From positions 501,731 through 565,730 of the forward strand of contig OZ242318.1 in assembly GCA_965208105.1 (NCBI GenBank): DNA of 64,000 nucleotides. Reading direction: 5' to 3'. The notes below the pieces were generated by a model. It did no database searches, was not told where the DNA came from, and worked only from the letters and a program-made list of their open reading frames with translations. Below, one piece after another: positions 15,533 through 32,257 of this stretch (position 1 is the stretch's first letter; each line of letters opens with the position of its first letter). This stretch comes from Candidatus Latescibacterota bacterium (GTDB lineage: Bacteria; Latescibacterota; UBA2968; UBA8231). A program made the position numbers and the translations under genes.

Positions 15533-15534
15533 AT

Positions 15535-17067: not shown

Positions 17068-17072
17068 AGAGA

Positions 17073-17147
17073 AAACCTGCGAAACTCCAAGCGGCCGAAT
17101 TGACCAAGTACGCGATCAAAGAAGGACCCGCTGGACCAGAGAAATAA
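17073..17147 (+). pseudogene. remnant of the 3' end of a LuxR-type response-regulator gene
   Basis: AACCTGCGAAACTCCAAGCGGCCGAATTGACCAAGTACGCGATCAAAGAAGGACCCGCTGGACCAGAGAAATAA aligns with the last ~70 nt of the RR gene at 12395-12466 (...VAELTKYAIKEGLTGLDE versus AELTKYAIKEGPAGPEK). No upstream coding part is present. Confidence 0.7.
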
Positions 17148-17164
17148 CCCCTGGGTCCGGTGCC

Positions 17165-17245
17165 TCTCCGCCGCAAAATCAGCTTTTCTGAAGGCAAAAA
17201 TCAGGTGTTTGCCCGATTGAAAAGCACCGTCTCCGTCTCTAATTT
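17165..17245 (+). promoter_or_regulatory. operator/promoter module copy A (upstream of the ABC ATPase)
   Basis: Palindrome GGCAAA-N9-TTTGCC at 17193-17213. Preceded by AAAATCAG (17175) and AAAATCAG (17197), 22 bp apart. Followed by TTGAAA (17217-17222), a 17-nt spacer and TAATTT (17240-17245). ATG of the next gene at 17290 with GAGGGAGG RBS. Homologous copies at 18685-18763 and 32180-32257. Confidence 0.6.
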
Positions 17246-17289
17246 AATTTGAACGACTCAACAACTTCTTACCCTGAGGGAGGTATATC

Positions 17290-18012
17290 ATGCTTGAAAT
17301 CATCTCCATGTCCAAGCACTACGGCGAGGTGCAGGCGGTCGACGAGCTCAACCTCACCATCCGCCCCGGTGAAATCTTTACTATGCTGGGGGCAAATGGC
17401 GCCGGCAAGACCACTACTCTTATGGTATCCCTTGGCTTTACCGAGCCGACGGCAGGCACGGTGAAGATCTGCGGCGTCGACGTGACCAGGGATCCCTTGG
17501 AGGCCAAAAAACACGTGGCTTACGTGTCAGAAAACGTCATGCTCTACGGCAATTTCACCGCCCGTCAAAACCTGGATTTCTTCGCCAAGTTAGGGGGGCG
17601 CAAGGACGCCACCGACGAAGAGTACGAGCGCATCATGGAGCGGGTGGGTCTGCAGGCGGACGCCTTCAACCGGAGGGTAAAAGGCTTTTCCAAAGGCATG
17701 CGCCAGAAGCTGGGCATCGCCATTGCGATCGTCAAAAACGCCGAGGTCATTTTGCTGGACGAGCCCACTTCAGGGCTGGATCCCCAGTCAGGGACCGAGT
17801 TTTTGCAGCTTTTGACCGAACTCAGGCACGAAGATAAAACCATCTGGATGACCACGCACGATGTCTTCCGCGCCAAGGCCATCGCCGACCGGGTGGGGAT
17901 CATGGTGAAGGGCAAGCTGGTAAAGACCTTTACGCGCGAGGAGTTGGAACGCGAGGATCTGGAGAAGATCTACGTGGAGTATGTCAGCCAGGAGGTGGGA
18001 CAGGCCGCCTGA
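17290..18012 (+). CDS. ABC-2-type transporter ATP-binding protein (no intact cognate permease adjacent)
   Basis: Walker A GANGAGKTT, signature FSKGMRQKLGIA, Walker B ILLDEPTSGLD. 240 aa, single NBD. Confidence 0.9.
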   Translation: MLEIISMSKHYGEVQAVDELNLTIRPGEIFTMLGANGAGKTTTLMVSLGFTEPTAGTVKICGVDVTRDPLEAKKHVAYVSENVMLYGNFTARQNLDFFAKLGGRKDATDEEYERIMERVGLQADAFNRRVKGFSKGMRQKLGIAIAIVKNAEVILLDEPTSGLDPQSGTEFLQLLTELRHEDKTIWMTTHDVFRAKAIADRVGIMVKGKLVKTFTREELEREDLEKIYVEYVSQEVGQAA

Positions 18013-18097
18013 GCACAACTCAGAAGTACTTACTTGTGATCGCCAAAAAAGAGATTGTCCACAATATCCTGAGTTTCAGGTCTGTGGCGATCCATGG
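18009..18097 (+). pseudogene. stub of an ABC-2 permease gene (first ~28 codons only)
   Basis: The frame overlapping the ATPase stop reads (L)STTQKYLLVIAKKEIVHNILSFRSVAIHG. This resembles the N-termini of the intact permeases at 24966/26383/27802 (MFKTILFKEIKGQLGTVTF). It has no ATG (CTG at the position of the usual ATGA overlap). Similarity ends near 18097. Confidence 0.55.
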
Positions 18098-18102
18098 GTT
18101 GC

Positions 18103-18196
18103 CAGTGGCAGTTTCGCGATCGAGTCAACGCCGGGGCAAGGCACGCGCTGCCTGCTGGCGGTTCCATTTTTATATCCAAGCCGGAGGGGACCCTCC
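18103..18196 (+). pseudogene. 3'-terminal remnant of a second sensor-kinase gene
   Basis: Encodes SGSFAIESTPGQGTRCLLAVPF, colinear with the C-terminus GGHFAIESSLGQGTSCLLTIPF of the kinase at 10677..11822. Nothing upstream of the G2 box is present. The reading frame runs into the next ATG without its own stop. Confidence 0.7.
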
Positions 18197-18628
18197 ATGA
18201 ATACGCAGGTGTTATTAGTAGAGGACCACGAGGCCGTGCGCCAGGAGCTGCGCTTGTTGCTTGAGCAACAAAGCGGAATTGAGGTAGTCGCCGAGGCCGG
18301 CGACGGCCGCACGGCCGTCGCCTTGGCCTCCACCTGTCTACCCGACATTGCGGTCATGGACGTTGGCCTGCCCCACCTGAATGGCATTGAGGCGACGCGA
18401 CAGATACGCGTCAAGGCGCCGGGCGTGAACGTGGTGGCGCTGTCGGTGCACGCGGACCGGCGTCTTGTAGACGGCATGTTTCAAGCAGGGGCTTCGGCGT
18501 ATGTGTTGAAAACGGCGGCTACCCGCGAGTTGGTGGAAGCGATCCGGCAGGTACAGGCCGGCCGCAAGTTCGTAAGTCCCGAATTGATCGCCCTCTTCGG
18601 CGAGGACTATGGCGCGTCTTCCTTCTGA
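18197..18628 (+). CDS. REC-only response regulator (LuxR-type paralog lacking the HTH domain; possibly a truncated gene)
   Basis: 143 aa. MNTQVLLVEDHEAVRQELRLLLEQQSGIEVVAEAGDGRTAVALAS...DIAVMDVGLPHLNGIEATRQIR is colinear with the RR at 11819..12466 up to ...SPELIALFGEDY, then diverges and stops. GGAGGGG RBS 7 nt upstream. Confidence 0.7.
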   Translation: MNTQVLLVEDHEAVRQELRLLLEQQSGIEVVAEAGDGRTAVALASTCLPDIAVMDVGLPHLNGIEATRQIRVKAPGVNVVALSVHADRRLVDGMFQAGASAYVLKTAATRELVEAIRQVQAGRKFVSPELIALFGEDYGASSF

Positions 18629-18684
18629 CGGCGCATTACAGAGAAAGATTCACCGAACTGGTGTTGTGAATCTCTCAGACACTC

Positions 18685-18763
18685 AGGCCGCAAAATCAGC
18701 TTCTCTGAAGGCAAAAATCGGGTGTTTACCCGATACCGACCAACCTGTCCTGTTGCTTAATTT
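18685..18763 (+). promoter_or_regulatory. operator/promoter module copy B (upstream of the peptide operon)
   Basis: AAAATCAG (18692) and AAAATCGG (18714) are 22 bp apart. Palindrome GGCAAA-N9-TTTACC. Conserved TAATTT at 18758-18763. The -35 position reads ACCGAC (poor), suggesting activator dependence. The first operon ATG is at 18860. Confidence 0.55.
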
Positions 18764-18859
18764 ATCCTTAAGAGTTGCGTCGATTTTTAACAAGTTGGAC
18801 AAGCAGCACTGGACGCCGAGGTAGTCGACCTACCGCCGCAAGCCTGGAGGAGAGATCGA

Positions 18860-20854
18860 ATGAAAAACATGAACATTAATAATGTATGCCTCTTCCTCGT
18901 GGGTATAATAGTATGGCCAACCTGTGGGACGGCAAGTTGGCACCTGAAGGCGTCCGGATATGAAGTTTCCAAGGTAAGGTATTCGATTTTCGGCGAAGGG
19001 TTGAAACAACACCGAGGATACTACTTTCCCGAATACCTGCCCGCAGACCGCGCGTTACATGTCGGATTCAAGCCCATCCGCTTCCAGAAATTTTCCGCCC
19101 TGGCCGAAGCTCTCGGCGCGAAAAGCGAAAAAATCCACGCTTGGAAAACCGAATTTGAGTCTCCTGTCAGGTGCTTGGACCAGATCACCTTCTTGTATCG
19201 CCGCATATATGCCAGGAACGTCAGTGAATACACAATTTATCTCCAATCCCCTCAGACTGAACAGTGGTACAGAAAAAGGATAATAATCCCTTTTAAGGGG
19301 TACCAGATCCCTTCATACGACGCGATTTCGCAATGGGAACCGTTGGTAGACGACGGCTCCGAAGAGGTATCCCAGTTTTTGAGCGAGGTTAACCATTTCG
19401 ATAAAATTGGCCAATTGGCGATCGTGGTTACTCCCTCGGATACGGACTTCGATTTTGTCATCGGAGACTTGCAAATAGTGGACCGGGAAATCGGCTATGC
19501 CGATTTCCATCATCCTTTTTTCGACCCGATTTTGAGCGAGGATTCCGCCCAGTACATCGAAAGAGATTCCTTTTACAATGCCTCAGGTATTCCCGCCCTG
19601 CTCCTTCCCATCAGTTGTTATGCCATGCACAGGAATTACGGGTCGGTTTTCCATTTCGACCCAGGGAATCGGGAAGTGGATGCCGGAGACATCAGGGACC
19701 TGAAAGTCAACGTTATCAAGCGAATTTTAGAGCTGTACTCATTCTATGAAGAACGCGGATTGGATAGGAAAAGCGCCCTGAACAGGTTTGCCTTCATCGA
19801 GAATTACGGGCTGGACAGAGAAGCTTTCGAGGACAGCGTCCGCGCTTTATTGGCAGATTTTCATGATGCCCATCTATCCGTAGCAAACAACGCCCATCTA
19901 TCCATAGCAAACAAGAAGAACAGATGCGCTTTCAATCATCCATTGGCGCTGTACAATATCGGCGGCAAAGTCTACGTGGCGGCGGTGTTCGACTCCCTAC
20001 TCGCGGACGATATAGAAGTGGGTATGAAGGTGCTCAAATTTGATGGAGTACCTGTGATTGAAGCGATAGACAGGGAAAGCGAGCATTACCGGGGCAGCAG
20101 CAAAATAAGAAGAAGGAAAGCGACGAGAAACCTGCTCGCATGCAGGCGAGACGAAAGGGCAACATTGAAACTTGCATCTGTTGATGGGGCAGTTAAAGAC
20201 GTCCTGATTGAAGACAGGAAAGTGCGGATTCCGTCGAATCTCGTGCCGCGACACGGAGAATTCAGGGTAGAAAGTGGGATAGTGTATTTTCGTATCCGCC
20301 AATGGACCTATGACGTGTGGATCCGGTTTTTGAACCATGCGGATGAACTCGAAAGCGCGAAGGGCCTGATCATCGATTTGAGGTCCAACGGTGGAGGTGA
20401 CGGCGGCACGGTGCTAAGGATGGTATCGGCGTTCATAGACGAGAACGCGCTATGTGGGAGCGAGTACTGTCCCGCCGACGGCAGAATCGAGAGCATGGTG
20501 ATAAGACCCAACGACAAATTCCATTTCGATCTGCCCGTCGTCATCCTGGCCAATGAGGCGACTGCCTGCGCAAGCGAGAACTTCATCGATATAATGAGAT
20601 CTACCAATCGGGCCATCATGGTGGCGGATAGTCACACACAGGGCCTTTTTTCGTCCAGGATCGACTTGATATTCCCGGACGGGATGAGGATTCATACCAA
20701 TAGCTTATCCAAACCGTTGAGACCCGATGGTTCTTCATACGAGGTAAAGGGGCTCGAGCCAGACATCTGGGTACACTTGAACACAATTGATGATCTGGCA
20801 CATCGGGAAGACAAGATACTGCGAACCGCAAATCATCTGCTGGAAGCGCAGTAG
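18860..20854 (+). CDS. S41-family (C-terminal processing / tail-specific type) peptidase with PDZ-like domain, N-terminal signal/anchor
   Basis: 664 aa. N-terminal hydrophobic segment VCLFLVGIIVWPTCG. PDZ-like GGKVYVAAVFDSLLADDIEVGMKVLKFDGVPV. S41 motifs GLIIDLRSNGGGDG and VVILANEATACASENF (Ser motif). The usual G-K-G lysine motif is not evident (DSHTQGLFSS). Lower-GC codon usage. Confidence 0.7.
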   Translation: MKNMNINNVCLFLVGIIVWPTCGTASWHLKASGYEVSKVRYSIFGEGLKQHRGYYFPEYLPADRALHVGFKPIRFQKFSALAEALGAKSEKIHAWKTEFESPVRCLDQITFLYRRIYARNVSEYTIYLQSPQTEQWYRKRIIIPFKGYQIPSYDAISQWEPLVDDGSEEVSQFLSEVNHFDKIGQLAIVVTPSDTDFDFVIGDLQIVDREIGYADFHHPFFDPILSEDSAQYIERDSFYNASGIPALLLPISCYAMHRNYGSVFHFDPGNREVDAGDIRDLKVNVIKRILELYSFYEERGLDRKSALNRFAFIENYGLDREAFEDSVRALLADFHDAHLSVANNAHLSIANKKNRCAFNHPLALYNIGGKVYVAAVFDSLLADDIEVGMKVLKFDGVPVIEAIDRESEHYRGSSKIRRRKATRNLLACRRDERATLKLASVDGAVKDVLIEDRKVRIPSNLVPRHGEFRVESGIVYFRIRQWTYDVWIRFLNHADELESAKGLIIDLRSNGGGDGGTVLRMVSAFIDENALCGSEYCPADGRIESMVIRPNDKFHFDLPVVILANEATACASENFIDIMRSTNRAIMVADSHTQGLFSSRIDLIFPDGMRIHTNSLSKPLRPDGSSYEVKGLEPDIWVHLNTIDDLAHREDKILRTANHLLEAQ

Positions 20855-20903
20855 AATCCATAGGCTTTGGAAGGCGACAAACTGTAAGAAAGGAGAACAT
20901 GCC

Positions 20904-21062
20904 ATGAAAGAGCTCATTAAGCCCAACTTGACTGAGGAAGAGTGCGAGAATAACGAGGTCGCGGCATATTGCGACCTTTATTCCTGCGCGCCCGTGAGTT
21001 GCAACCTTTGGTCGTGTCAACCCGTTTCGGGTGATGACGAGTCCGGGGACATTCTGTTCTAA
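20904..21062 (+). CDS. Cys-rich precursor-peptide candidate (52 aa) with four C-X3-S pentads
   Basis: AAGGAG (20889-20894) lies 9 nt before ATG 20904. MKELIKPNLTEEECENNEVAAYCDLYSCAPVSCNLWSCQPVSGDDESGDILF. It sits immediately upstream of a radical SAM/SPASM gene. The 91-aa track ORF from 20787 overlaps the end of the upstream gene and is less likely. Confidence 0.75.
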   Translation: MKELIKPNLTEEECENNEVAAYCDLYSCAPVSCNLWSCQPVSGDDESGDILF

Positions 21063-21248
21063 TTGCCAATTGTTCAGCGGAGGCCATAACAGCGAAGGAC
21101 CATTCGCCTGGAACACGTCTCTTGACCGTTTGACCCCATAACTACTTTTCGATCAGTTTGTCGCCTTCCACGTCTTTCAGAAGCCGTCTTAGACCCTCGG
21201 TGAGGATCACTAGGAACTTTAAGGAGGCTTCTTAAAAAGGAAAATGAG

Positions 21249-22730
21249 ATGTTTAAGTTGAGCTATTATACCTTCATCATCCCCGTAACCGAGAAGGGGA
21301 TGTACCTCGCCTATAATTCATTTACCAATGCATTGCTGGAATTGGAGTGGCATGAAGGCAAGAAGATGCTGGAGTGGAAAAAGAAGGATGCCATTCCCTC
21401 TTCGGAACTCGACAGCGAAGAAAAGCGCTTTGTAAACGCTTTGCTCAACAATCACTTTCTGGTAGACGAGGGGGTTGATGAGAAAGAGCGCTTGCATCGC
21501 CGCATTTCTACCCAGAAAGAAAGGTTCTGGAGAGAACCAGCGACCATGGCGCTCACCATATTGCCGACTATCTCGTGCAATATGGGTTGTTCCTATTGTT
21601 TTGAGGGATACAAGCCGTTCGGCAAGGTTATGAACAATGAGGTCATGGACGATATAGCCGAATTCGTGGTAAGAGAAATCAAGCAAAGCACTGTCGTCAG
21701 TTCCTTCAAAAAAATGTTCATCCAGTGGTACGGGGGGGAGCCCCTGCTGCAACCACATGTCGTCGATAGACTTTCGGAAAAATTGTACCGAATCGCCGAC
21801 GACAACCAAATCCCCTATACTTCGATGATCATTACGAACGGAACCTATCTAACGCCCGCTATATGGGATCTGTTAAAGGAAGCGAGAATTGACCGGATAC
21901 AAGTGACCATTGATGGCCACAAGGACTCCCACAACAGGCAACGCCCCCTCACCTTGCCGATCATCGGCCAGGAAATAGAGGCGGGTAGCTATGACACCAT
22001 ACTGGAAAACCTGAAGTATTTTCCGGACAAGATGGCTCTTAATATCCGGATAAATTCGGATAAGAATATAATCAATTCCCTGGGCGACCTCCTGGACGAC
22101 CTGGAGGAAATTGGCCTGTGGCCTCAGCAGGCTAGCCATGTGAGCCTGACCCTCGCCCATAAGGAAACTCCTTATGAAGAGTCGGGAGTAGTAGACATCG
22201 AGTCTCAGTACTTGAGCCTCAAGCAGCAAACCAAGGCGCAGAAGATATTCCAGGACATGAAGCTCAATCACTACAACAATTGGGCCTCCAAAAATAACAG
22301 GGTTTTGGCCAGGAAGCGTCTGGCCTACCCTGAACCGGCAACTTTTGTATGTGGGACTGCCTCGCTGCCTTACAGTTTTTCCATAAGTTACGACGGGCAT
22401 ATTCACCAGTGCATGGAGCAAGTCAACGATCCTAAAGCTAAGTCACATTACATTGGCGATACCTACAATATCCACGATCCCCTGCGGAAAATTTTCCTGA
22501 ACTGGGATAAATTCCTTCACCATCCAATGTGCACTGATTGCAGGGTACTGCCCATATGCGACATGGTTTGTCCTCACAAGGACCCGCCCGAAGCGTGCTG
22601 TGATTGGAAGGTAGACCTCAAATCGCGGTTGAAGGAGCAGTATATCGCGTCCATTGATACGCCCCACCTAATTGAGTCTTTCGACGCAGTAGAACAACAG
22701 CGGCAGAAAGATTTCACCCTCGTGATATAG
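21249..22730 (+). CDS. radical SAM / SPASM-domain peptide maturase
   Basis: CNMGCSYC (CxxxCxxC, 21576-21599). GGEPLL motif. SPASM 7-Cys pattern CGTASLPYSFSISYDGHIHQC ... CTDCRVLPICDMVC (C-x2-C-x5-C-x3-C). About 100-aa N-terminal extension that could be a leader-recognition (RRE-like) domain. Confidence 0.9.
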   Translation: MFKLSYYTFIIPVTEKGMYLAYNSFTNALLELEWHEGKKMLEWKKKDAIPSSELDSEEKRFVNALLNNHFLVDEGVDEKERLHRRISTQKERFWREPATMALTILPTISCNMGCSYCFEGYKPFGKVMNNEVMDDIAEFVVREIKQSTVVSSFKKMFIQWYGGEPLLQPHVVDRLSEKLYRIADDNQIPYTSMIITNGTYLTPAIWDLLKEARIDRIQVTIDGHKDSHNRQRPLTLPIIGQEIEAGSYDTILENLKYFPDKMALNIRINSDKNIINSLGDLLDDLEEIGLWPQQASHVSLTLAHKETPYEESGVVDIESQYLSLKQQTKAQKIFQDMKLNHYNNWASKNNRVLARKRLAYPEPATFVCGTASLPYSFSISYDGHIHQCMEQVNDPKAKSHYIGDTYNIHDPLRKIFLNWDKFLHHPMCTDCRVLPICDMVCPHKDPPEACCDWKVDLKSRLKEQYIASIDTPHLIESFDAVEQQRQKDFTLVI

Positions 22731-22744
22731 GGCCCCTAATACCC

Positions 22745-24640
22745 ATGCGAATAGCAATCATAGACAGCGGAATAGATGCGGGACACAAGCGTCTCAAGAA
22801 TTGCGTGTGCAGCGGCGTTTCGCTGCGGTGCGGCGAAGAAAAACCCACCCTTAGCTACGAATACGGCGACTGCCTGGGCCACGGGACCGCCTGTGCGAGC
22901 CTCGTGCACAAGGTGGACCCGCAGGCGGAAATAGTGGCGGTGAAGATATTTCACCGCGAGCTATCCGCCAAAGAGGAGCTACTTTGTGAAGGTATCAGAT
23001 GGTGTTTGGGCAACGACATCGACGTCATCAACCTGTCCCTCGGAATCCTGACGGATAGCCCCTCGCAAGCGCTGATCGGCCTGCTCGAAGAGGCCTTTGT
23101 GAAAAACGTCGTCGTCGTCTCGGCGGCGCACAACGACTTGAGGCTGGAATGCTACCCGGCGCATTTCCACACCGTGTTCGGCGTGACCTGGGGAAAGGTG
23201 GACCATCACTGCTTGTATGGTTATCTGCCCGACTCGGCCATCGAATTCATCGCCAAGGGGACGATACAGCGGGTCGCATGGAAAGACGGGGGCTATTCCC
23301 TATTGAGCGGAACGAGTATGGCCTGTGCCCATTTCACCGGCATCACCGCGGGCGTACTAAGGCAGAGCCCCTCTATGTCGGTCGGGGAACTCAGGAGCCA
23401 CCTTATCGGGAAGGCGGACGCGAATATTCGGGCGCTGCAACCTGGCAGCAAAATTCAGGGAGCCTTCCCGAGGATCATCAGCGGCGATCTGGACGAGGCG
23501 GGACGGAGGCTGTTCCGCTGGGAGGAAAAGATGGATTGGCTGGGGGACCTGGCCCTTTTTCCCGCCAGCGAAAAGGAGATGAGCGGCTTTGTCGAATTTC
23601 CCGGCTATTGTACGCAAAAGATAGCGAAGTACATTGACTACCCAAGAAACATGAAGAGGCAGGCCCCAAACGGCAGCGGCAAAAGCGATGCTATCAAAAC
23701 ATACGACAAGATGCTGGACGCGGCGGCTTGCGAAGACTTCGACACGATGGTTCTGGGATATTTTTTTGATCAACTCTTTGAGGCGAATATCCGCTTCGGC
23801 AACGACTTGCTGGCCGTGTGCATGGAGGCCCAAAAGAACCTCTACGTGTACGACCCCAGGTTGAAAGCTCATATCGATAGCCTGAACGGAAGTGCCAAGC
23901 CTTTGTTTCGGCTGTATATGCCGGAGGTCAATGGCCGGTTGCACGACCGTGTCATGCAGTTTCGCCATCTGCCCAGGGTACGGGTGCCCGTCATGGCAGT
24001 GATGGGCACGAGCAACCGCCAGGGGAAGTTCACCGCGCAACTCCGGCTCAAAGACATCCTCAACAGAGAGGAATACAAAGTCTGCCACCTATCCACTGAG
24101 CCCCAGGGTGAGTTGTTCGGGGCGGATTTCAGTTTTCCCTATGGCTATAACGGGACAGTTTCCATCCACCGCAAAAAGTGGTCGATGTTCCTCCGCACCC
24201 TGCTCAAAGCCGTCCAGGAATACAACAGACCCCATATCATCCTGACCGGGACACAAGGCATGACGATTCCCCGGGCACCCAACCAAGCCCCGCTGGGAAA
24301 TGAATGCGACAGCCTGGAATTCATGTACGGTGTCCATCCTGATGCTTTAGTTTGCGCCATAAATCCCCAGGATTCCATCGAACTGGTCGTCGACGCGTGC
24401 CAGGCGGCCCGGATATTCTGCGGGGCGGAACCCTTGTTTTTCATCATGACTCCCTGGATGAGAGACTACACGCGCGCCGGCAACGGCCGCATGGTACGCC
24501 ATCACCGATACCTGCATAAGGAAGAGATGGCGGAGAAAATGAACCATTTCCAGGAGGTATTGCACAAGCCGGTCATCGATATCATGGATTTGAACAATGA
24601 CAAGCTAATCTTGGACGCCATCCAGGATTTCTTTTCGTGA
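22745..24640 (+). CDS. S8 subtilisin-like serine peptidase fused to a ~400-aa C-terminal P-loop (DUF1611-like?) domain
   Basis: Catalytic triad contexts IAIIDSGIDAGH (Asp), CLGHGTACASLV (His), LLSGTSMACAHF (Ser), all within the first ~230 aa and with no signal peptide. The C-terminal part contains VMAVMGTSNRQGKFT (G-x5-GK-type loop). Confidence 0.75.
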   Translation: MRIAIIDSGIDAGHKRLKNCVCSGVSLRCGEEKPTLSYEYGDCLGHGTACASLVHKVDPQAEIVAVKIFHRELSAKEELLCEGIRWCLGNDIDVINLSLGILTDSPSQALIGLLEEAFVKNVVVVSAAHNDLRLECYPAHFHTVFGVTWGKVDHHCLYGYLPDSAIEFIAKGTIQRVAWKDGGYSLLSGTSMACAHFTGITAGVLRQSPSMSVGELRSHLIGKADANIRALQPGSKIQGAFPRIISGDLDEAGRRLFRWEEKMDWLGDLALFPASEKEMSGFVEFPGYCTQKIAKYIDYPRNMKRQAPNGSGKSDAIKTYDKMLDAAACEDFDTMVLGYFFDQLFEANIRFGNDLLAVCMEAQKNLYVYDPRLKAHIDSLNGSAKPLFRLYMPEVNGRLHDRVMQFRHLPRVRVPVMAVMGTSNRQGKFTAQLRLKDILNREEYKVCHLSTEPQGELFGADFSFPYGYNGTVSIHRKKWSMFLRTLLKAVQEYNRPHIILTGTQGMTIPRAPNQAPLGNECDSLEFMYGVHPDALVCAINPQDSIELVVDACQAARIFCGAEPLFFIMTPWMRDYTRAGNGRMVRHHRYLHKEEMAEKMNHFQEVLHKPVIDIMDLNNDKLILDAIQDFFS

Positions 24641-24954
24641 ACGGGCGTGAGGACGGCACCATGAGAGAAGCTATCGAGCAGCGATTGTACGAACTGATAG
24701 GGACGTTTGGAGACCAACCGATCAACTGCTCTGTTGAGAGCGAAGTGCGAAGGATGCTCCATATCATCTTGAGCGAGTCCATACAAGCGATGGAATTCGT
24801 CATCGCCATTGAGAACGAATTCGAGATCGAGTTCGACGACGAAGACATCTCCATCCAATTCTTCCTCGACCCGGATCATATCATCCAATCCGTGCTGAGA
24901 GGTCTGGCGCGGAAGGAGGCGGATGGCCTAACATCATCAAGTGCTGTCACCTGA
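24637..24954 (+). CDS. acyl-carrier-protein-like small protein
   Basis: LHIILSESIQAMEFVIAIENEFEIEFDDEDI aligns with the ACP helix II region (DSL replaced by ESI, Ser retained). GTG 24637 overlaps the upstream stop (GTGA). Alternative ATG at 24661. Confidence 0.6.
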   Translation: MNGREDGTMREAIEQRLYELIGTFGDQPINCSVESEVRRMLHIILSESIQAMEFVIAIENEFEIEFDDEDISIQFFLDPDHIIQSVLRGLARKEADGLTSSSAVT

Positions 24955-24965
24955 GGAGGTCTGCC

Positions 24966-26366
24966 ATGTTCAAGACCATTCTGTTCAAGGAAATCAAGGG
25001 CCAATTAGGCACGGTGACATTCGCCGTCTGGATGGGCGTCTCGTGCTTTCTGGTCTGGATGGCCCTGGAGAGCGGTTATTCGAGATACGAGCACAAGCAT
25101 CAGCAATACCTCGATATGGACAGGGTGGTCAAAGACGGCCTCAGCAAAGAATACGACGTCAACAAGGCGGAAGAGGAGCTCTTCCGGGTTTTGCGGCAGC
25201 CGTCGGTGTTGAGCGCAGTTGTCTACGGGCTGGAAGGCAAGATGCCGATCTATATGAGTGTCAATCCCAACGGCGTACGCTCCGGTTCGGGGTCAGGCAC
25301 GGAAGAATCCGTATTGAGCCTGTTCGGGGAGCTGGATTTTCTCCTGGTCATCGAGCTGATTCTCGGGCTGATGGCCGTGGTGCAGGCGGCCAGTCTGGTG
25401 TCTTCGGAGAGGGAAAACGGCACTCTGAAGCTGATATTGGCCAACCCGGTTTCCCGCAGCACCGTCTTGCTGGGCAAGTGTATGGGCGGATACGCTGTCG
25501 TCGCCTTCGTCTTTGTGTTTTCCTCCTTTATCGGGTTTTTGCTTCTCTCGATCAGGGGGTTTCCACTTTTCGAGTCGGACGTGCTCGCGCCGATACTCCT
25601 GATCTTGGCCGGGAGCCTGGTCTATTTGCTGTGCATCTTTCTGGTGGGGATGGTCGGTTCTATCCTGTTCCTGAACACTCAAACGGCCTTGATATTGAGC
25701 GTGTCGATCTGGGCCGCGCTGTCTTTTCTCGTTCCCAAAAGCGCCCGGATCGCGGCCGAGTTGATCCGCCCGGTAGAGGACGAGCGGACGGTTTACTTGC
25801 GTCAGAAGCACGCCCGTGAAGACCTGATCAGGGCCCAGCATGAGGAAATGAGCGAGAATTACCGCCAGGAGTTGACTCCAGAATGGCTGATGGCCAACTT
25901 CGCGACCTTGGCAGAGGAAGGCGCGGCAGTTTGGAAGAAATACAGCGACCGGATCTCCAAAGACCTGACCACCATCGCCGAGGACCACCACCGGGAGAAG
26001 AAAGCGCAGGAATCTCTGGGTAAGGTGCTGTCCCGGGTATCCCCCGCGGGCAGTTTCCGGCTGCTCTTGGCGAATTTGTCCGGTACGGGCGACCAGGTGA
26101 AGTGGGAATTACTGCAAGTGGCCTGGAACTACCAGAAAACGGTCAATGACAAGGTCTTCGCCAAAAAACCCTTGATCGCTGTCCAGAATATGAGTTTCCC
26201 CCATGATATGGGTACAGAGGATCCGCCGCCCCCACCTCTGGTCATGGCGCCGCCCCTCGGCAGTGTCTTGACCGAATCCGCGCTAGACACAGCCTTATTA
26301 TGCGTCTATGCCGTCATGTTGTTCATGCTGGCCTATATGCTGTTCCTGCGGCGCTCTATCGTGTAA
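24966..26366 (+). CDS. ABC-2-family permease-like membrane protein with long C-terminal extension, paralog 1
   Basis: MFKTILFKEIKGQLGTVTFAVWMGV. Conserved SSERENGTLKLILANPVSRSTVLLGK. Multiple TM helices. Pro-rich stretch and terminal TM helix near the C-terminus. Confidence 0.8.
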   Translation: MFKTILFKEIKGQLGTVTFAVWMGVSCFLVWMALESGYSRYEHKHQQYLDMDRVVKDGLSKEYDVNKAEEELFRVLRQPSVLSAVVYGLEGKMPIYMSVNPNGVRSGSGSGTEESVLSLFGELDFLLVIELILGLMAVVQAASLVSSERENGTLKLILANPVSRSTVLLGKCMGGYAVVAFVFVFSSFIGFLLLSIRGFPLFESDVLAPILLILAGSLVYLLCIFLVGMVGSILFLNTQTALILSVSIWAALSFLVPKSARIAAELIRPVEDERTVYLRQKHAREDLIRAQHEEMSENYRQELTPEWLMANFATLAEEGAAVWKKYSDRISKDLTTIAEDHHREKKAQESLGKVLSRVSPAGSFRLLLANLSGTGDQVKWELLQVAWNYQKTVNDKVFAKKPLIAVQNMSFPHDMGTEDPPPPPLVMAPPLGSVLTESALDTALLCVYAVMLFMLAYMLFLRRSIV

Positions 26367-26382
26367 TAGAGGAGTCATCCCC

Positions 26383-27786
26383 ATGTTCAAGACTATTCTG
26401 TTCAAGGAAATCAAGGGCCATTTAGGCACGGTGACATTCGCCGTCTGGATGGGCGTCTCGTGCCTGGTGGTATGGATGGCTCTGGAGAGCGGCTATTCGA
26501 GATACGAGCACAAGCATCAGCAATACCTCGATCAGGAACGAGAGGCGAAAAAAAGCCTCAGTAAAGAATACTTTGCGTTCTGGCCGGAAGAGGAAATATT
26601 CCGGGTGCTGCGCCAGCCGTCGGTGTTGAGCACCATCGTCTATGGGCTTGAAGGTGAGCTGCCGGTTTATCTGAGCGTCAACCCCAACGGCGTCCGGTCC
26701 GGTTCGAAGGGGATGGGTGGAGCTATGTCGCGCCTGTTGGGAGAGCTGGATTTTCTCCTGGTCATCGAGATGGTGTTCGGGCTGATGGCCGTCGTGCTGG
26801 CGGCCACTCTGGTGTCGTCGGAGGGAGAAAACGGGACGCTCAAGCTGATATTGGCCAACCCGGTCTCCCGCAGCACGGTCTTGTTGGGGAAGGGGCTGGG
26901 CGCCTTCGCCATCATCGCCTTTGTCTTTGTGTTTTCCACTTTTATCGGGCTTTTGTTCCTGTCGGTGAAGGGGTTTCCCCTCCTCGAACGGGAGGTGCTC
27001 GCGTCACTGCTCGTGATTGTGGCGGGAAGTCTGGTTTATTTGCTGTGCGTTTTCCTGGTGGGGATGATCTGCTCCATCCTGTTTTTGAACACCCGGGTGG
27101 CCTTGGTGCTGAGCGTCTTGCTGTGGGCGGTGCTGTCTTTTCTGCTGCCCAAAAGCGCCGGGACTGCGGCGGAGTTGATGCGCCCGGCAGAAGACGGTTG
27201 GACCGTTTACTTGCGTCAGAAATCCGCCCGTGAAGCCCATCTCAAGGCCCACCACGAGGAAGTGAACAAGCATTACCCCCATCTGGGTCCAGCCCCGGAC
27301 TCGAGGGATCTGGACTACCCAGGGATTACGGAGACTGCCGTAGCGGCTTGGGGGAAGTACAGCGACCGGATCGCCAAAGAAGTGACCACCATCGCCGAGG
27401 ATCACAATCGCAACAAGCAAGCCCAGGAAGCCCTGGGGAAGGTGCTGTCCCGGCTATCCCCCGCAAGCAGTCTCCGCCTGCTGTTGGCCAATGTGGCCGG
27501 CACGGGCGACCAGGTGAAGCGCAACTTCCTGCAAGCGGCCTGGAACTATCAGAATACGGTTGACGACAAAGTCTTCTCAAAAAGAATCCATATCACTATC
27601 AGGAAGAATCAGGGTTGGCCCTGGGACATGGGTGCAGAGCGACCGCCGCCCCTGCCCCCGCTCCTGCCGCCGTCTCTCGAGAGTGTCTTGGTGGAGTCGG
27701 CGTTAGAAATCGCTTTATTGTTCGTCTATTCCGTCTTCCTGTTCATGCTGGCCTATATGCTTTTCATTCGTCGATCCATCGCGTAG
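26383..27786 (+). CDS. ABC-2-family permease-like membrane protein, paralog 2
   Basis: ATG 26383 after GAGGAG. The first ~150 nt are nearly identical to paralog 1. SSEGENGTLKLILANPVSRSTVLLGK. Confidence 0.8.
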   Translation: MFKTILFKEIKGHLGTVTFAVWMGVSCLVVWMALESGYSRYEHKHQQYLDQEREAKKSLSKEYFAFWPEEEIFRVLRQPSVLSTIVYGLEGELPVYLSVNPNGVRSGSKGMGGAMSRLLGELDFLLVIEMVFGLMAVVLAATLVSSEGENGTLKLILANPVSRSTVLLGKGLGAFAIIAFVFVFSTFIGLLFLSVKGFPLLEREVLASLLVIVAGSLVYLLCVFLVGMICSILFLNTRVALVLSVLLWAVLSFLLPKSAGTAAELMRPAEDGWTVYLRQKSAREAHLKAHHEEVNKHYPHLGPAPDSRDLDYPGITETAVAAWGKYSDRIAKEVTTIAEDHNRNKQAQEALGKVLSRLSPASSLRLLLANVAGTGDQVKRNFLQAAWNYQNTVDDKVFSKRIHITIRKNQGWPWDMGAERPPPLPPLLPPSLESVLVESALEIALLFVYSVFLFMLAYMLFIRRSIA

Positions 27787-27801
27787 TAATGGAGTCTTAT
27801 C

Positions 27802-29229
27802 ATGTTCAAGACCATTATGTTCACGGAAATCAGGAGTCGCTTGGGCACGGTAACTTTCTCCCTGTGGCTGGGCGTCTCGTGCTTGGTGGTATGGATGGCT
27901 CTCGAGAGCGGCTACTCGAGATACGAGCACAAGCATCAGCAGTACCTCGATCTGAAACGGGCGGCCCAAGATGGCCTCAGCAAAGCATACATGCCGGTCG
28001 TAGCGGAAGAGGACATATTCCGGGTTCTGCGTGAGCTCTCCGTGTTGAGTGCCATCGTCTACGGGCTGGAAGGCGAGATGCCGGTCTATATGAGCGTCAA
28101 TCCCAACGGCGTACAGCCCGGGGCGGGGATAGCGGATAAATCCTTGTTGGACCTGTTGGGAGAGTTGGATTTTCTCCTGGTCATCGAGCTGATTCTCGGG
28201 TTGATGGCCGTGGTGCAGGCAGCCACTCTGGTGTCGTCGGAAGAGGGAAACGGGACGCTCAAACTGATGTTGGCCAACCCGGTCTCTCGCAGCACCGTCC
28301 TGTTGGGGAAGGGGCTGGGCGCCTTCGCCGTCATCGCCTTCACCCTTTTGTTTTCCACCCTTTTCGGACTTTTTTTGCTCTCGGTCCGGGGATTTCCGCT
28401 CTTCGAGGCAGCGGTGCTCGCGCCGATACTCTTGATCTTGACGGGGAGCCTGGTCTATCTGCTCGTCATCTTTCTGATCGGGCTGACCTGCTCTATTCTG
28501 TTTCTGAATTCCCAGGTAGCTTTGATCCTGAGTGTCTCGCTCTGGGCTGCGCTGTCTTTTCTCGTGCCCCAAAGCGCCTGGACTACGGCGGAGTTGATCC
28601 GCCCGGCAGAGAACGAGCGGACGGTTTATGTGCGGCAGAAATACGCCCGCGAAGCCCATCTCAATGCCTACCACGAGGAATTGAACAAGCGTTACCCCCA
28701 CCTGCAACCTGACGCAGAGGGCAATGCGGACTGGTCGGGGGTCAACCAGACCGAGTTGACGAAGGACGCGGTGGCGGTTTGGGCGAAATACAGCGACCGG
28801 ATCGCCAAAGAAGTGACCACCATCGCCGAGAACTACCACCGGAACAAGCAAGCGCAGGAAGCCCTCGGTAGGGTGCTGTCCCGGGTCTCCCCCACCGGCA
28901 GTTTCCGCCTACTCTTGGCCAACCTGGCCGGTACGGGCAACCAGGTGAGGTGGAAATTCTTGCAAGCGGCCTGGGACTACCAGAATATGGCAAACGATAA
29001 AGTCTTCTCAAAAGATCCCATGATCACTATCGGACCCTCGAGTTGGTGGCCCAGTATTATGCGGGGTGCAGATAACCCTCCTCCCCCACCTCCCCCACCA
29101 CCGGTCATGGTTCCGTCCCTCGGCAGCGTCTTGACAGAGTCGGCCTTGGACATGGCCATGCTGTTCATTTACGCCGTCGTGCTCTTCATGTTGGCGTATT
29201 CGCTGTTCATGCGTCGGTCCATTGTATAG
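27802..29229 (+). CDS. ABC-2-family permease-like membrane protein, paralog 3
   Basis: MFKTIMFTEIRSRLGTVTFSLWLGV. SSEEGNGTLKLMLANPVSRSTVLLGK. PPPPPPPPP tract before the last TM helix. Confidence 0.8.
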   Translation: MFKTIMFTEIRSRLGTVTFSLWLGVSCLVVWMALESGYSRYEHKHQQYLDLKRAAQDGLSKAYMPVVAEEDIFRVLRELSVLSAIVYGLEGEMPVYMSVNPNGVQPGAGIADKSLLDLLGELDFLLVIELILGLMAVVQAATLVSSEEGNGTLKLMLANPVSRSTVLLGKGLGAFAVIAFTLLFSTLFGLFLLSVRGFPLFEAAVLAPILLILTGSLVYLLVIFLIGLTCSILFLNSQVALILSVSLWAALSFLVPQSAWTTAELIRPAENERTVYVRQKYAREAHLNAYHEELNKRYPHLQPDAEGNADWSGVNQTELTKDAVAVWAKYSDRIAKEVTTIAENYHRNKQAQEALGRVLSRVSPTGSFRLLLANLAGTGNQVRWKFLQAAWDYQNMANDKVFSKDPMITIGPSSWWPSIMRGADNPPPPPPPPPVMVPSLGSVLTESALDMAMLFIYAVVLFMLAYSLFMRRSIV

Positions 29230-29266
29230 TCCGCCGCTCCCATTGCATGAGGATGAGTTGAGAGTT

Positions 29267-31015
29267 ATGAAACGCGTTCCTGACTCGGAACCTGGGATGA
29301 TCAGAGCTACACTGAAGAGAATCGGATTATACCGCGCAATTATGGCCAACGGACTGAATATATTGCTTCTGTGTATTATCGCCGCGGCAGTGGTAACGTT
29401 GACCATAGCCAAGCCCATCGTGTTTTCCAGGATAATTGACAAGGGAATCCTCAGTGAGGACTGGAGCGTGGTCCGCTCGCACTGCGTCTACTTCCTCATT
29501 ATTGCATTGGGCTTGAGTCTTTTCGGGTTAGCTCACTCTTTAGTCGCGTCGGTAATACACAACAAAATATCCTTGATAATCAAACAGGTTCTCCTGGAAC
29601 GGATCTTTCTCCTGGACGCCGGATTCTTCCACACGAACAAGACCGGAGACGTCATTACCAAGCTGGACAACGACGTATCGAGCATCCAGACCTACATCAT
29701 GTCGGTCCTGAACGCCTCCATGAACAATTTTATCAGCTTTCTAGGGGCGATGATCTATATCGGCTACGTGCAATGGAGGATGTTGATCGTCGGGTTCCTG
29801 GTGACCCCGTTTGTGGGTCTGGCCATTTACGCGTTCCGCAACGTGTTATACTCCAAGGACAAGAAGACCCGGGAGCGGAAGTCCGACGTAAATGACGCGA
29901 TAATAAACGCCGTCGACCATCAGCTTTACCTGAGGAAGGTCGGATTGGACTCGAGATCGCTGTCGAAGTGCAAATGGACCTTGGACCAGTACCGGGTCGC
30001 ATCCATCTTTTACGACCTATGGCGCGGCGGCAGCGGGTCGCTAAACAACCTCCTCCTTGCCGTCGGCTATATTGTTACCATCGGCTACGGTTCGTGGCTG
30101 GTCTTCAAAGGCATGCTCAGCGTCGGCAATCTTTTCGCATTTCTAACCCTGCGCACCATGTTCCTTGCCCCGCTGACGGTCTTCAAGGAAATCTACAGTG
30201 GGTACTTTTCGACTAAATCCGCATTCAAGCGCCTGGACGATTTCTTCTGCCATCGGATCGAGAAGGGTCTGGAACGCATGGACAACTCGAAACCCGAATC
30301 GTTTGGAGAGATCTGTTTGAGCAACGTATCGTTTGCCTATCCAGGGCAACACTGTCTGTTGAACCACATTGACGTTGAATTCGGCAGGGGCTGGAATATC
30401 CTGGCGGGTAGAAACGGTGCGGGGAAATCGTCATTGATCGACCTGCTCATGAAGATTTCGTCTCCAAGGGAGGGGCGCATCTTGGTCGACGGCGTAGATA
30501 TTGGCTCGCTCAACAATCAGTCATGGAGGTCCAACATCAGTGCCATGCCTCAAACCACGTACTTGTTCAAAGGGTCGTTGCGGGAGAACATTCGCCTGTA
30601 TGACGAGGGCATAACCGACGGTCGAATTCAGGCCGTGCTGAACCGCCTGAGCTTCGATTTCGATCCCGAAAAGCTACCAGCAGGGCTCGATACGAACATT
30701 ATGGAGGGAGGGACCAATTTTTCTGGGGGCCAGCGCCAAAAAATCGCGATCGCCAGGACCGCCCTCAAAGACACCCCTATCTACATCTTCGATGAACCCC
30801 TGTCCAGTCTGGATATGCGTTCGCGCGGCCTGGCCTTGGAGTACTTAAAAAAGGCGCTCAAAGGCAAGATCGTCCTAATCGTTTCACACGATGACATGGG
30901 CGAATATACGGATCGGGAGTACAGAATGAAAGACGGGGCCATCGTGACCACCGCCGCAAACGGGTTGGATCGTGTTCCAGAGGAGGGTTCCAATACTTTG
31001 CATATATCAGTCTGA
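29267..31015 (+). CDS. ABC exporter, fused transmembrane + ATP-binding domains (type I exporter, no C39 peptidase domain)
   Basis: ATG 29267. N-terminal 6-TM-type domain. Walker A GRNGAGKSS, signature FSGGQRQKIAIART, Walker B IYIFDEPLSSLD. Confidence 0.85.
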   Translation: MKRVPDSEPGMIRATLKRIGLYRAIMANGLNILLLCIIAAAVVTLTIAKPIVFSRIIDKGILSEDWSVVRSHCVYFLIIALGLSLFGLAHSLVASVIHNKISLIIKQVLLERIFLLDAGFFHTNKTGDVITKLDNDVSSIQTYIMSVLNASMNNFISFLGAMIYIGYVQWRMLIVGFLVTPFVGLAIYAFRNVLYSKDKKTRERKSDVNDAIINAVDHQLYLRKVGLDSRSLSKCKWTLDQYRVASIFYDLWRGGSGSLNNLLLAVGYIVTIGYGSWLVFKGMLSVGNLFAFLTLRTMFLAPLTVFKEIYSGYFSTKSAFKRLDDFFCHRIEKGLERMDNSKPESFGEICLSNVSFAYPGQHCLLNHIDVEFGRGWNILAGRNGAGKSSLIDLLMKISSPREGRILVDGVDIGSLNNQSWRSNISAMPQTTYLFKGSLRENIRLYDEGITDGRIQAVLNRLSFDFDPEKLPAGLDTNIMEGGTNFSGGQRQKIAIARTALKDTPIYIFDEPLSSLDMRSRGLALEYLKKALKGKIVLIVSHDDMGEYTDREYRMKDGAIVTTAANGLDRVPEEGSNTLHISV

Positions 31016-31023
31016 TATTCAGA

Positions 31024-32082
31024 ATGAGCTACCAGATGTCGACTAAAGAGTTATACTTACCGCTCAATCCCAATCCTCCGATTAGAGTCTATCTGCATCA
31101 TGCCTACCCTCTGTCAATTTTATCAAGTACCGAAGAGTATTTGCCCTGGTTCCGAAGCAACTTTGTTCAACTGTATAGCGGGGGTCCCGATCATATCGAT
31201 TTCCTCGTACCCATGCTTACACACGCAGACCATCCTCAGATCTACTATTCTCCTCTTCTGAACGTGGTTCGGCTCAATAGAAAAATCGTCGATTTGATAA
31301 ATGCCGATTCTGAAATCTGGAGATTCATTGTCGACTGTATAACAGAGGGCTTCTACGTCGATATCGAGGTTGATGAATATCACGTTCCTTTTACTCGCGC
31401 ATTCCATAATTTTCATACTGGACATTCTCTTCTGATTCATGGCTACAATACTGCTCAGGAAAAATTCAGTGCCATCGGTTACGATCGAAACGGCAAATAC
31501 GGCATCCAGCTTGTCGATTTTGCCAGCACACTCAAAGCTTACGGTAGCCGGGAAAGTAAAAATCACATGGCAATAGTGTCTCATGCTTTAAGACAGAAAA
31601 CGGGCCGCGATAGCAACATCCAGTGCGAATTCACGCTCGAGTTGGTGGTTGACATGCTCAAGGACTACATCCACTCAATCAACACGCTTGACCGGTTGAA
31701 GTTGGTTTTGAGATCGAACTATAGATCGAATTCCCTGCGTTTTGGAATTGAGGCCGTCAGAAAATTGCGATTTGAACCTAGTGCGGCGAATGCGCCTTTG
31801 GATCTGCGTCCTTCTCACTGTCTCTGGGAGCATAAGAAATGTATGGCCGAGAGGGTTCAGTACCTGGTAGAAAACGGATATTTGGACAAGGTTGGAAATT
31901 TGGTATTTGAGTTCGGAAAAATTGCTAAAATGGCGGAATCACTCAGGCTGCTGGCAATCAAGTACAACTTGCAGAAACAACGAAAAATACTCCATAAAAT
32001 GGACAACCTGAGAAACAAAATAGTTGAGGGTGAGAAATTCCTCATAAAAAATTTACTGGACCGACTACCGTCATGCCCATGA
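31024..32082 (+). CDS. hypothetical protein (orphan, last gene of the lower-GC operon)
   Basis: 352-aa ORF, AT-rich codon usage like its neighbours, 8 nt after the exporter stop. No motif I can assign with confidence. Confidence 0.6.
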   Translation: MSYQMSTKELYLPLNPNPPIRVYLHHAYPLSILSSTEEYLPWFRSNFVQLYSGGPDHIDFLVPMLTHADHPQIYYSPLLNVVRLNRKIVDLINADSEIWRFIVDCITEGFYVDIEVDEYHVPFTRAFHNFHTGHSLLIHGYNTAQEKFSAIGYDRNGKYGIQLVDFASTLKAYGSRESKNHMAIVSHALRQKTGRDSNIQCEFTLELVVDMLKDYIHSINTLDRLKLVLRSNYRSNSLRFGIEAVRKLRFEPSAANAPLDLRPSHCLWEHKKCMAERVQYLVENGYLDKVGNLVFEFGKIAKMAESLRLLAIKYNLQKQRKILHKMDNLRNKIVEGEKFLIKNLLDRLPSCP

Positions 32083-32179
32083 ATAGCTTTACCAATTTGC
32101 AAAAAATTCATAAGACAGTCCGTTCGCGACCCGTAACCTGATGCCGGCGGCGCTTCCGATCCTTTAACCGGAAAGGCCG

Positions 32180-32257
32180 CTCCGCCGCAACATCAGTTTT
32201 CCGAAGGCAAAATCAGGTGTTCGCCCGATTGAGAAGCACCGTTGCCGTCGCTATGTT
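32180..32257 (+). promoter_or_regulatory. operator/promoter module copy C (at the distal end of the lower-GC operon)
   Basis: AACATCAG (32189) and AAAATCAG (32209). GGCAAA-N8-TTCGCC. TTGAGA (32229-32234), 17-nt spacer, TATGTT (32252-32257). No intact gene follows. Confidence 0.5.

Follow-up and report, generated by a model that had tools for sequence, protein, structure and literature searches.

At the lux box of Vibrio fischeri luxI, as at the tra boxes of TraR, a dimer of a LuxR-type helix-turn-helix (HTH) protein occupies a dyad of ~18-20 bp near -42 to -44, and in the class II arrangement this dyad abuts or replaces a weak -35 element and activates a sigma-70-type promoter. Here we analyze a stretch of 64,000 nucleotides from a Candidatus Latescibacterota bacterium (contig OZ242318.1, positions 501,731 to 565,730; hereafter the window), in which an ~80-bp module recurs three times, as copies A, B and C, near the gene for an ABC ATPase and an operon for a ribosomally synthesized peptide with post-translational modifications (RiPP), and in which the intact genes for a PAS-domain sensor kinase and a NarL/FixJ-type response regulator, RR1, precede all three copies. 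Comparison of these copies with each other and with their counterparts in other genomes indicates that each is probably an activator-dependent promoter together with its operator. Like the lux box, the module presents a dyad in what is predicted to be the class II position by the -35 region. The regulator family found with it differs from LuxR in having a phospho-receiver in place of an autoinducer-binding domain, and the module differs from the lux box in the unrelated sequence of its dyad and in the possession of a second, upstream box.

With respect to the proteins, the locus is comparable to NreBC of Staphylococcus and DosRS/DevRS of Mycobacterium, in which a HisKA_3 kinase of the PAS (or GAF) type likewise acts together with a NarL-type regulator. 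The half-sites of NreC (TAGGG) and DosR (GGGAC) both resemble the ATAGGG found in relatives, and the GGG and CCC of the dyad are separated by 4 nt in NreC sites, 8 nt in DosR sites and 6 nt in the module. A further likeness to NreBC is that the Paenibacillus loci described below contain a gene for an NreA-like GAF protein and an fnr-like target. Phosphorylated NreC is known to bind GC-rich palindromes (PMC8139620). However, the locus does not represent an NreBC system: the kinase of the window lacks the four-cysteine Fe-S cluster of an NreB-type PAS domain, its PAS region having a single cysteine in translation, and neither the kinase nor the regulator reaches an NCBIfam equivalog cut-off. Moreover, the predicted targets of the module are peptide and transport operons rather than the nitrate or hypoxia genes of NreBC and DosRS.

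A different set of parallels is provided by the peptide-antibiotic modules BceRS-AB, LnrJK-LnrLMN and lantibiotic LanRK, in which a two-component system stands beside an ABC transporter and in which BceR and LanR are OmpR-type regulators. As in these, regulator genes related to that of the window stand directly upstream of the promoter predicted to be their target, the predicted targets are a peptide biosynthesis operon and genes for ABC-2 permeases and an ABC ATPase, and one operator is common to several promoters of the cluster. The kinase nevertheless appears to be of the PAS type rather than intramembrane-sensing as in BceRS; Pfam detected no transmembrane or extracytoplasmic sensor domain in it, no topology prediction having been made. 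Among known clusters, orphan RiPP clusters of the DD(I/V)LF type (flm/ohk) are the closest to the peptide cluster of the window, although two of its components score below the curated cut-offs: the precursor scores 28.3 bits against 30 for FlmA and the maturase 378 bits against 500 for FlmE/OhkG. Unlike the flm/ohk clusters, the operon shows no peptide arginase. The mature products of this family are uncharacterized (Chembiochem 2025, PMC12703449), and the passages retrieved from that paper contain no description of how flm/ohk clusters are regulated.

Anatomy of the repeated module

Self-comparison of the window with blastn aligned copy A to copy C with 87.5% identity over 80 nt (17162-17241 versus 32176-32253, E = 3e-19) and to copy B with 93.8% identity over 48 nt (17170-17217 versus 18687-18734, E = 3e-13). 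Global alignment gave pairwise identities of 68/83 (A/B), 70/83 (A/C) and 59/84 (B/C), or 70-84% overall, confirming the three ~80-bp copies that a first-pass annotation had reported at these places (Table 1). For a 25-mer allowing up to 3 mismatches, shuffled sequence gives an expectation of 0.00 occurrences, and a weight matrix of the central dyad (box2, see below) scores A, B and C at 32.4-32.7 bits as against 15.2 for the runner-up site in the 64 kb and 17.7 for the maximum in shuffles. Hence, the repeat is real, not a product of chance and not dispersed in the window. Further, an nhmmer profile built solely from intergenic DNA adjoining RR1 homologs in other genomes recovered from the window exactly A (E = 1.2e-12), B (4.3e-10) and C (4.8e-09), and nothing else. 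All three copies lie on the plus strand, each oriented toward a downstream gene, and their flanks have diverged past recognition while their cores have not.

Three copies in 15 kb with an internal dyad might also be expected of a generic dispersed repeat of the REP or MITE type, unrelated to these genes, a possibility that the first-pass annotation had itself raised. Against this, the window has only these three sites rather than many, each pointing consistently to the gene downstream, the complete Latescibacterota chromosomes OY282352.1 and OZ220478.1 contain a single locus each for the 21-mer core, and the metagenome collection yielded only 10 matches. We therefore consider the chance of such a repeat to be next to negligible.

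Comparison with the relatives resolved the module into, in order, box1, box2, a spacer of 22-23 nt and a -10-like hexamer of the form TAnnTT. Box1 is ATCAGCTTTTCTGAA and lies within the almost invariant stretch GCAAAATCAGCTTTTCTGAAGG. Box2 is an 18-bp dyad, ATC(A/G)GG-N6-CCCGAT, which is perfect in B (ATCGGG-N6-CCCGAT), and in all three copies it has the form typical of NarL/FixJ operators, namely a dyad or repeated half-sites of ~16-20 bp. In L062 (L-numbers denote fetched loci of other genomes) box2 is the symmetric variant ATAGGG-N6-CCCTAT, and position 3 covaries with its mirror position, C..G being exchanged for A..T. The two AAAATCAG boxes previously described as lying about 22 bp apart are the conserved left halves of box1 and box2; the distance is indeed 22 nt in A (17175 and 17197) and in B (18692, with AAAATCGG at 18714), and 20 nt in C. 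The inverted repeat GGCAAA-N9-TTTGCC, originally taken to be the palindrome of the module, did not hold up: it is perfect in A only, has TTTACC as its right arm in B and N8 followed by TTCGCC in C, and is absent from the relatives. Given this lack of conservation, it was replaced by ATCRGG-N6-CCCGAT as the conserved palindrome.

The distance between CCCGAT and the hexamer (more generally TAnnnT) is 22 nt in A, C, L006, L008, L023, L034, L055-L062 and Paenibacillus, and 23 nt in B. The hexamer itself is TAATTT in A and B, TATGTT in C and the canonical TATGAT in Paenibacillus. If it represents the -10 element, box2 would extend from about -52 to -35 with its center at about -43.5, which is the position of a class II activator, and box1 would be centered near -67, ~23 bp upstream of box2. 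The -35/-10 pairs are as first noted, with TTGAAA-17-TAATTT in A, ACCGAC/TAATTT in B and TTGAGA-17-TATGTT in C. The -35 region is not conserved, being represented in the relatives by ACAAAA, AGGAGG, ATAAGC and others. Variability of the -35 region alongside retention of both boxes and the -10 is the pattern expected under activator dependence. A sigma-54 or ECF-type promoter was considered and set aside, as no GG-N10-GC or GGAAC/CGT pattern was apparent, judging by inspection only.

The repeat might instead be a structured nucleic-acid signal, such as a minus-strand intrinsic terminator, a hairpin or a cis-regulatory RNA. In its favor, the minus-strand sequence of box2 can be read as a stem of 7 bp with TTTTTGCC behind it, and a terminator scan lists it for A and B. 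We regard this explanation as disfavored and extremely improbable. There is no minus-strand gene that ends at these places, and the plus strand lacks the U-run of a terminator. The Rfam gathering scan reports only the group II intron, which lies elsewhere; the RNAalifold consensus of -3.0 kcal/mol includes 0 compensatory pairs; and the plus-strand z-scores of the single sequences range from -0.9 to +1.0. Moreover, the Paenibacillus box is located between divergent genes.

The weaker fourth relative suggested by the first-pass annotation at ~12470-12530, behind the intact regulator gene, was not recovered: the profile has no match there at E<=10, and local alignments of the region 12467-12600 to A, B and C score within the range of shuffles. 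The same shuffle-based test rejected a resemblance of the left flank of C to the DNA following the RR1 stop codon. The box2 weight matrix gives no autoregulatory site above background upstream of the kinase gene, where an insertion sequence (IS) occupies the region.

Recurrence beside NarL-type regulators in other genomes

A pattern scan for AAAATCnGGTGTTnnCCCGAT with one genome per species recovered 44 loci, to which a narrower metagenome scan added 10, giving a total of 54. Where the box is followed by TAnnnT 21-23 nt downstream, a gene for a LuxR-type HTH protein occurs within 1 kb in 12 of 17 cases; among the other 37 matches such a gene is present, at any distance in the fetched locus, in 2. 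If Paenibacillus is collapsed to one lineage, 12/17 becomes ~5/10. The cases linked to a regulator come from Latescibacterota, Geobacter, eight species of Paenibacillus and two contigs from metagenomes. The sequences most similar to the element were those of Latescibacterota metagenome-assembled genomes (MAGs). Five loci from Candidatus Latescibacterota MAGs (L006, L008, L014, L023 and L034) combine the pattern with extended homology, and in these a tandem box with spacings of 32 nt and 21 nt is followed after 22 nt by TAYTTT. In the eight Paenibacillus species (L022, L026 and six more) the 21-mer, 22 nt and TATGAT are found upstream of an fnr-like gene of the Crp/Fnr family. In these genomes the box is divergent from an operon for an NreA-like GAF protein, a NarL-type regulator and a PAS kinase, with pyruvate formate-lyase genes nearby, and these loci probably represent an anaerobic switch with the same type of operator. 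The 21-mer also adjoins genes for NarL-type regulators in Geobacter (L010) and on contigs L046 and L048.

Approached from the protein side, the RR1 homologs form a large family with 56-69% identity, several of whose members are named 'NreC' by JGI. Among homologs that are 58-69% identical to RR1, the module stands beside the regulator gene in each of the 11 loci that were fetched and examined, a set that includes several near-duplicates, so that box and regulator gene are linked across genomes, as is typical of a NarL/FixJ operator. Three arrangements were observed: 1) L055-L057 and L061 have, in order, the PAS kinase, the regulator, the module, and hypothetical genes with S8 peptidases. 2) L058-L060, L062 and L063 have the regulator, the module and then variable cargo. 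3) L064 and L065 from Syntrophobacteraceae, with a 58% identical regulator, have a dCache kinase, the module, a 105-aa gene and the regulator, and their box2 is a variant one base shorter, with a spacer of 5 nt instead of 6. Additional copies precede further transcription units in L059 (9324-9396), L006 (3150-3199) and L023 (5065-5119).

In L060, L062 and L063 the cargo comprises, after regulator and module, (GNAT), DUF5128, a small Cys-containing peptide, a 230-aa protein, an ABC exporter, a rhodanese and an S8/DUF1611 protein. The small peptides that follow DUF5128 in the relatives (L062 9058-9303, L063 8142-8348, L060 8122-8346, L059 11705-11968) are 68-88 aa long with an N-terminus of the form M..LIKKPxxRR.SL..AY, and seem to form a second and distinct family of precursors governed by this type of regulator. 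The 'orphan' regulators of L058-L060 and L063 have common upstream neighbors (GFO_IDH_MocA, ogt-like, MscS and Uma2) and downstream cargo that varies between a non-ribosomal peptide synthetase (NRPS), penicillin amidase, DUF5128 and IS elements. Just upstream of its regulator gene, L060 has a stretch comparable to, and alignable with, the kinase remnant HK' of the window (Table 1).

Candidate regulator and predicted targets

Each transcription unit concerned has one module in front of it, and copies A and B are each preceded by a regulator remnant, as the first-pass annotation had observed, namely the 3' end of a gene at A (17071-17136) and a receiver domain at B (18197-18610). The remnant before A is 88.6% identical to RR1 at the nucleotide level (12412-12455 versus 17093-17136, blastn), and for the longer alignment of 12389-12455 with 17071-17136 none of 500 shuffles was as good. 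That before B, RR', is 61% identical in amino acids to residues 1-138 of RR1 and is closest to the regulators of L059 and L063 (66%). A possible relic of the last codons of a regulator between RR' and B (18639-18661) was marginal, with 28 of 500 shuffles as good, and was not retained. RR1 itself is the only intact member of the family, and the only intact candidate binder, that tblastn finds in the 64 kb; the solved structures nearest to it are those of VraR, NarL, DesR and DevR.

We propose that a phosphorylated NarL/LuxR-type regulator of the RR1/RR' family would bind box2 as a dimer, and probably box1 (ATCAGCTTTTCTGAA) as well, and would recruit RNA polymerase in the class II manner to the TAnnTT -10-like element, usually in the absence of a good -35. 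The earlier suggestion of an operator for a regulator of this type is thus supported by the comparison, with ATCRGG-N6-CCCGAT taking the place of the palindrome originally specified. Copy A would drive the ABC ATPase gene and copy B the operon for biosynthesis of, immunity to and export of the RiPP. Co-regulation of A and B in this manner would mean that the orphan ATPase is produced at the same time as the biosynthetic enzymes and the three ABC-2 permeases. As first described, copy C lies just past this operon with no intact gene behind it; however, it is still joined to its ancestral 5' leader and to the beginning of a GNAT/DUF5128 unit of the kind that comes directly after the regulator gene in relatives. 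Copy C would once have driven this unit, before its decay, and would now be a still promoter-like relic facing dead genes. As RR' is truncated, RR1 and its PAS kinase would be the acting system in this genome.

Several observations weigh against these proposals. A standard sigma-70 scan accepts the hexamer of C and rejects TAATTT as present in A and B. The RR' gene, which adjoins B, has lost its HTH, and RR1 belongs to the sister lineage, whose relatives have box2 in the form ATGAGG..CCCTAT, which renders the cognate pairing in this genome uncertain. Among L058-L063 the module is conserved at 79%, as against 83% for third codon positions of the regulator gene (87% at the nucleotide level over the whole gene), although these genomes are too close for this test of purifying selection to be informative. 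Between the window and the relatives the module is 58-74% identical and third positions 60-67%, which amounts to a match or a slight excess.

The only candidates for the actor on these copies are RR1 and an unseen paralog, and we consider the case for RR1 specifically as the binder to be about evenly balanced. The module might be a real operator and promoter served by some other regulator, either a paralogous NarL-type protein with its gene elsewhere in the genome or another with a LuxR-type HTH, RR1 then controlling other targets. In keeping with this, the RR' beside copy B is dead, L055, L057 and L061, which belong to the RR1 lineage, combine the ATGAGG..CCCTAT variant with a 25-nt insert between the boxes, the boxes adjoin LuxR-HTH proteins devoid of a receiver in L003 and L048, and the copies in L008, L014, L023 and L034 have no regulator gene nearby. 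We nevertheless view such an assignment as unlikely, given that the window has no intact member of the family other than RR1, that the remnant directly preceding copy A is RR1-like, and that the region of the recognition helix is alike across the family.

The signal of conservation is block-wise in the sequences compared and not global. For instance, box1 of A is identical to that of L060 at 22 of 22 positions, though the third positions of the adjoining regulator genes agree at only 67%. It is this block-wise conservation, together with the invariant spacing and the recurrence beside distant regulators (38-58% aa identity) with unrelated neighboring genes, that makes the case for an operator. 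Alternatively, segmental duplication or recombination might have left the copies behind as inert scars, regulator 3' ends and intergenic DNA having been copied along with cassettes, and the resemblance to promoters would then be incidental. The homology at A does reach into the 3' end of the regulator gene, remnants, an IS and a group II intron attest to heavy rearrangement of the locus, and in close relatives the module is not better conserved than synonymous sites. Against this, boxes, spacing and TAnnnT are kept where the regulators are 38-58% identical and the neighbors unrelated, the cores are recognizable between flanks diverged past recognition, and each copy is correctly placed and oriented before a gene with a ribosome-binding site (RBS). 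Inert scars are in our view decidedly improbable.

As an activator-dependent promoter with its operator, the module would be a regulatory element of an ordinary kind, well defined and previously undescribed, though unsurprising in principle. It offers a testable cis-regulatory code (box1, the box2 dyad, the 22-nt spacer and the -10) for a widespread and uncharacterized family of NarL-type regulators, and ties this family to orphan operons of uncultured bacteria for RiPPs and transporters. In practice, these promoters could be paired with a phosphomimetic regulator so that cryptic clusters of the DD(I/V)LF type or associated with DUF5128 are expressed in a heterologous host. In addition, the locus documents the duplication of a regulator-linked promoter around inserted operons.

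Locus history and neighboring genes

To the left of B lies RR', the ancestral left flank of the module, and to the right of C lie the leader and the GNAT and DUF5128 remnants, its ancestral right flank. Thus, the 13.4-kb peptide operon and one module appear to have come to lie between sequences that are adjacent in the relatives. The leader aligns with those of L059, L060, L062 and L063, the 84-nt stretch 32315-32398 is 84.5% identical to 6809-6892 of L062 (blastn), where the first gene behind the module begins, and the DUF5128 fragment matches, besides L063 (Table 1), the DUF5128 genes of L059, L060 and L062 in tblastx and L006 at 2058-2292. A 34-nt near-perfect palindrome (94%) is situated within this fragment, at 32468-32501. 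The peptide operon has a GC content of 0.45-0.52, compared with 0.54-0.60 locally and 0.63-0.68 outside the island described below, and the counterparts of its S8/DUF1611 protease and ABC exporter in L062 and L063 show no more than 23-32% identity, implying that the clusters are of one broad kind but that this one is a separate member rather than an ortholog. In an analogous manner, the segment with OEP and NEW3 genes is flanked by the RR1 3' end and its 88.6% identical duplicate, and in L059 a penicillin-amidase gene lies between two modules. We propose that the copies are paralogs spread by duplication or recombination at the junction of regulator 3' end and operator.

The first-pass annotation had also regarded the repeats flanking the operon as a plausible substrate for the recombination that placed it there. 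The flanks of B and C and the bracketing in L059 agree with that view, whereas the lack of a nearby recombinase and the identity of only 59/84 between B and C do not, and it is plausible on circumstantial support from the sequence that the repeats mark recombination junctions. In its stronger form this idea makes the repeats primarily recombinational, as docking sites for the excision and integration of cassettes, with any promoter activity secondary. It would account for B and C carrying the left and right flanks of what in L060, L062 and L063 is an unbroken junction, for the two modules around the L059 gene and for the lower GC of the inserted operon (0.45-0.52). However, the searches of the region from 3.5 to 36 kb revealed no integrase and the repeats do not have the features of att or attC-like sites; the only mobile-element genes, those for a DDE transposase and the intron reverse transcriptase, are 7-10 kb away. 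Further, any recombination between B and C would have to be old given their divergence, direct repeats favor deletion over insertion, and the extra copies before individual transcription units are equally well explained by regulation. We hence deem a primarily recombinational role very improbable.

A combination of both functions is conceivable, if still rather doubtful: the regulator-3'-end/operator junction, in addition to serving as operator, might double as a recombinase-free docking site, at which cassettes that carry a module integrate or excise by homologous recombination within it. This suggestion derives from the two events in the window, i.e. OEP-NEW3-NEW3 between duplicated 3' ends and the RiPP operon between B and C, and from the penicillin amidase of L059 and the differing cargo in L058, L059, L060 and L063. 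If true, one two-component switch would come to control different operons in turn, for peptides, transport or enzymes, as these are exchanged.

The genes of the window were mapped by Pfam and NCBIfam searches and by tblastn (Table 1). The RiPP operon begins with an S41 peptidase, the precursor, the radical SAM/SPASM maturase, a QhpE-like S8+DUF1611 protease and an ORF for an ACP-like protein of 105 aa, and continues, in order, with three ABC-2 permeases, an ABC exporter and a BtrH_N-like protein. The three permeases (24966-29229) are tandem paralogs with ~67% amino acid and 77% nucleotide identity and a period of 1417-1431 nt, and have no adjoining ATPase. The sole unpaired ATPase is the one encoded behind copy A, 7 kb upstream of them.

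Table 1. Coordinates of the module copies, genes and gene remnants in the window
Feature	Position	Strand	Remarks
Group II intron	7121 to ~9000		Rfam RF02003 at 7121-7256, 117.6 bits; reverse-transcriptase/maturase ORF 7548-8909
IS with DDE transposase	9082-10311	-	Directly upstream of kinase gene
PAS/HisKA_3/HATPase_c sensor kinase	10677-11822	+	Pfam
RR1, intact NarL/FixJ-type regulator	11819-12466	+	Receiver and GerE HTH; Pfam, tblastn
OEP and two NEW3-domain proteins	12678-17067		
RR1-like regulator, 3' remnant	17071-17147	+	Includes stop codon; directly upstream of copy A
Copy A	17162-17247	+	Box1 17178-17192; box2 17200-17217; TTGAAA 17217-17222; TAATTT 17240-17245
ABC ATPase, DrrA/lantibiotic-protection type	17290-18012	+	Behind copy A; RBS GAGGGAGG at 17276-17283; Pfam, NCBIfam
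HK', C-terminal remnant of paralogous kinase	18047-18208	+	39% to kinase residues 331-381; tblastn
RR', truncated paralogous regulator	18197-18610	+	Receiver only, HTH deleted; Pfam, tblastn
Copy B	18687-18765	+	Box1 18695-18709; box2 18717-18734; poor -35 ACCGAC 18735-18740; TAATTT 18758-18763
Peptide (RiPP) operon	18860-32082	+	Behind copy B; Pfam, NCBIfam, ORFs
Precursor, 52 aa	20904-21062		MKELIKPNLTEEECENNEVAAYCDLYSCAPVSCNLWSCQPVSGDDESGDILF; ends GDDESGDILF, C-terminal DILF motif
FlmE/OhkG-like radical SAM/SPASM maturase	21249-22730		
Copy C	32176-32259	+	Box1 32192-32205; box2 32212-32229; TTGAGA 32229-32234; TATGTT 32252-32257
Ancestral leader and decayed GNAT-like 5' end	32260-32398	+	AGCGAAAGG 32262-32270; RBS 32320-32326; GTG 32333
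DUF5128 (beta-propeller) internal fragment, pseudogene	32422-32670	+	70.4% to L063 7006-7256; blastn

On a larger scale, a direct repeat of 398 bp with 87% identity (5906-6303 and 32806-33203), which represents two copies of a small ORF (MPIVQLELVIRGNFERISGDTLQ...) for which neither Pfam nor NCBIfam gave a match, brackets a 26.5-kb island of lower GC that includes the whole regulator and peptide locus. A MalK-like ATPase (3568-5553, minus strand) is encoded to the left of this island and a BPD_transp permease (33369-34250, minus strand) to its right, and hence a sugar ABC operon may have been split.

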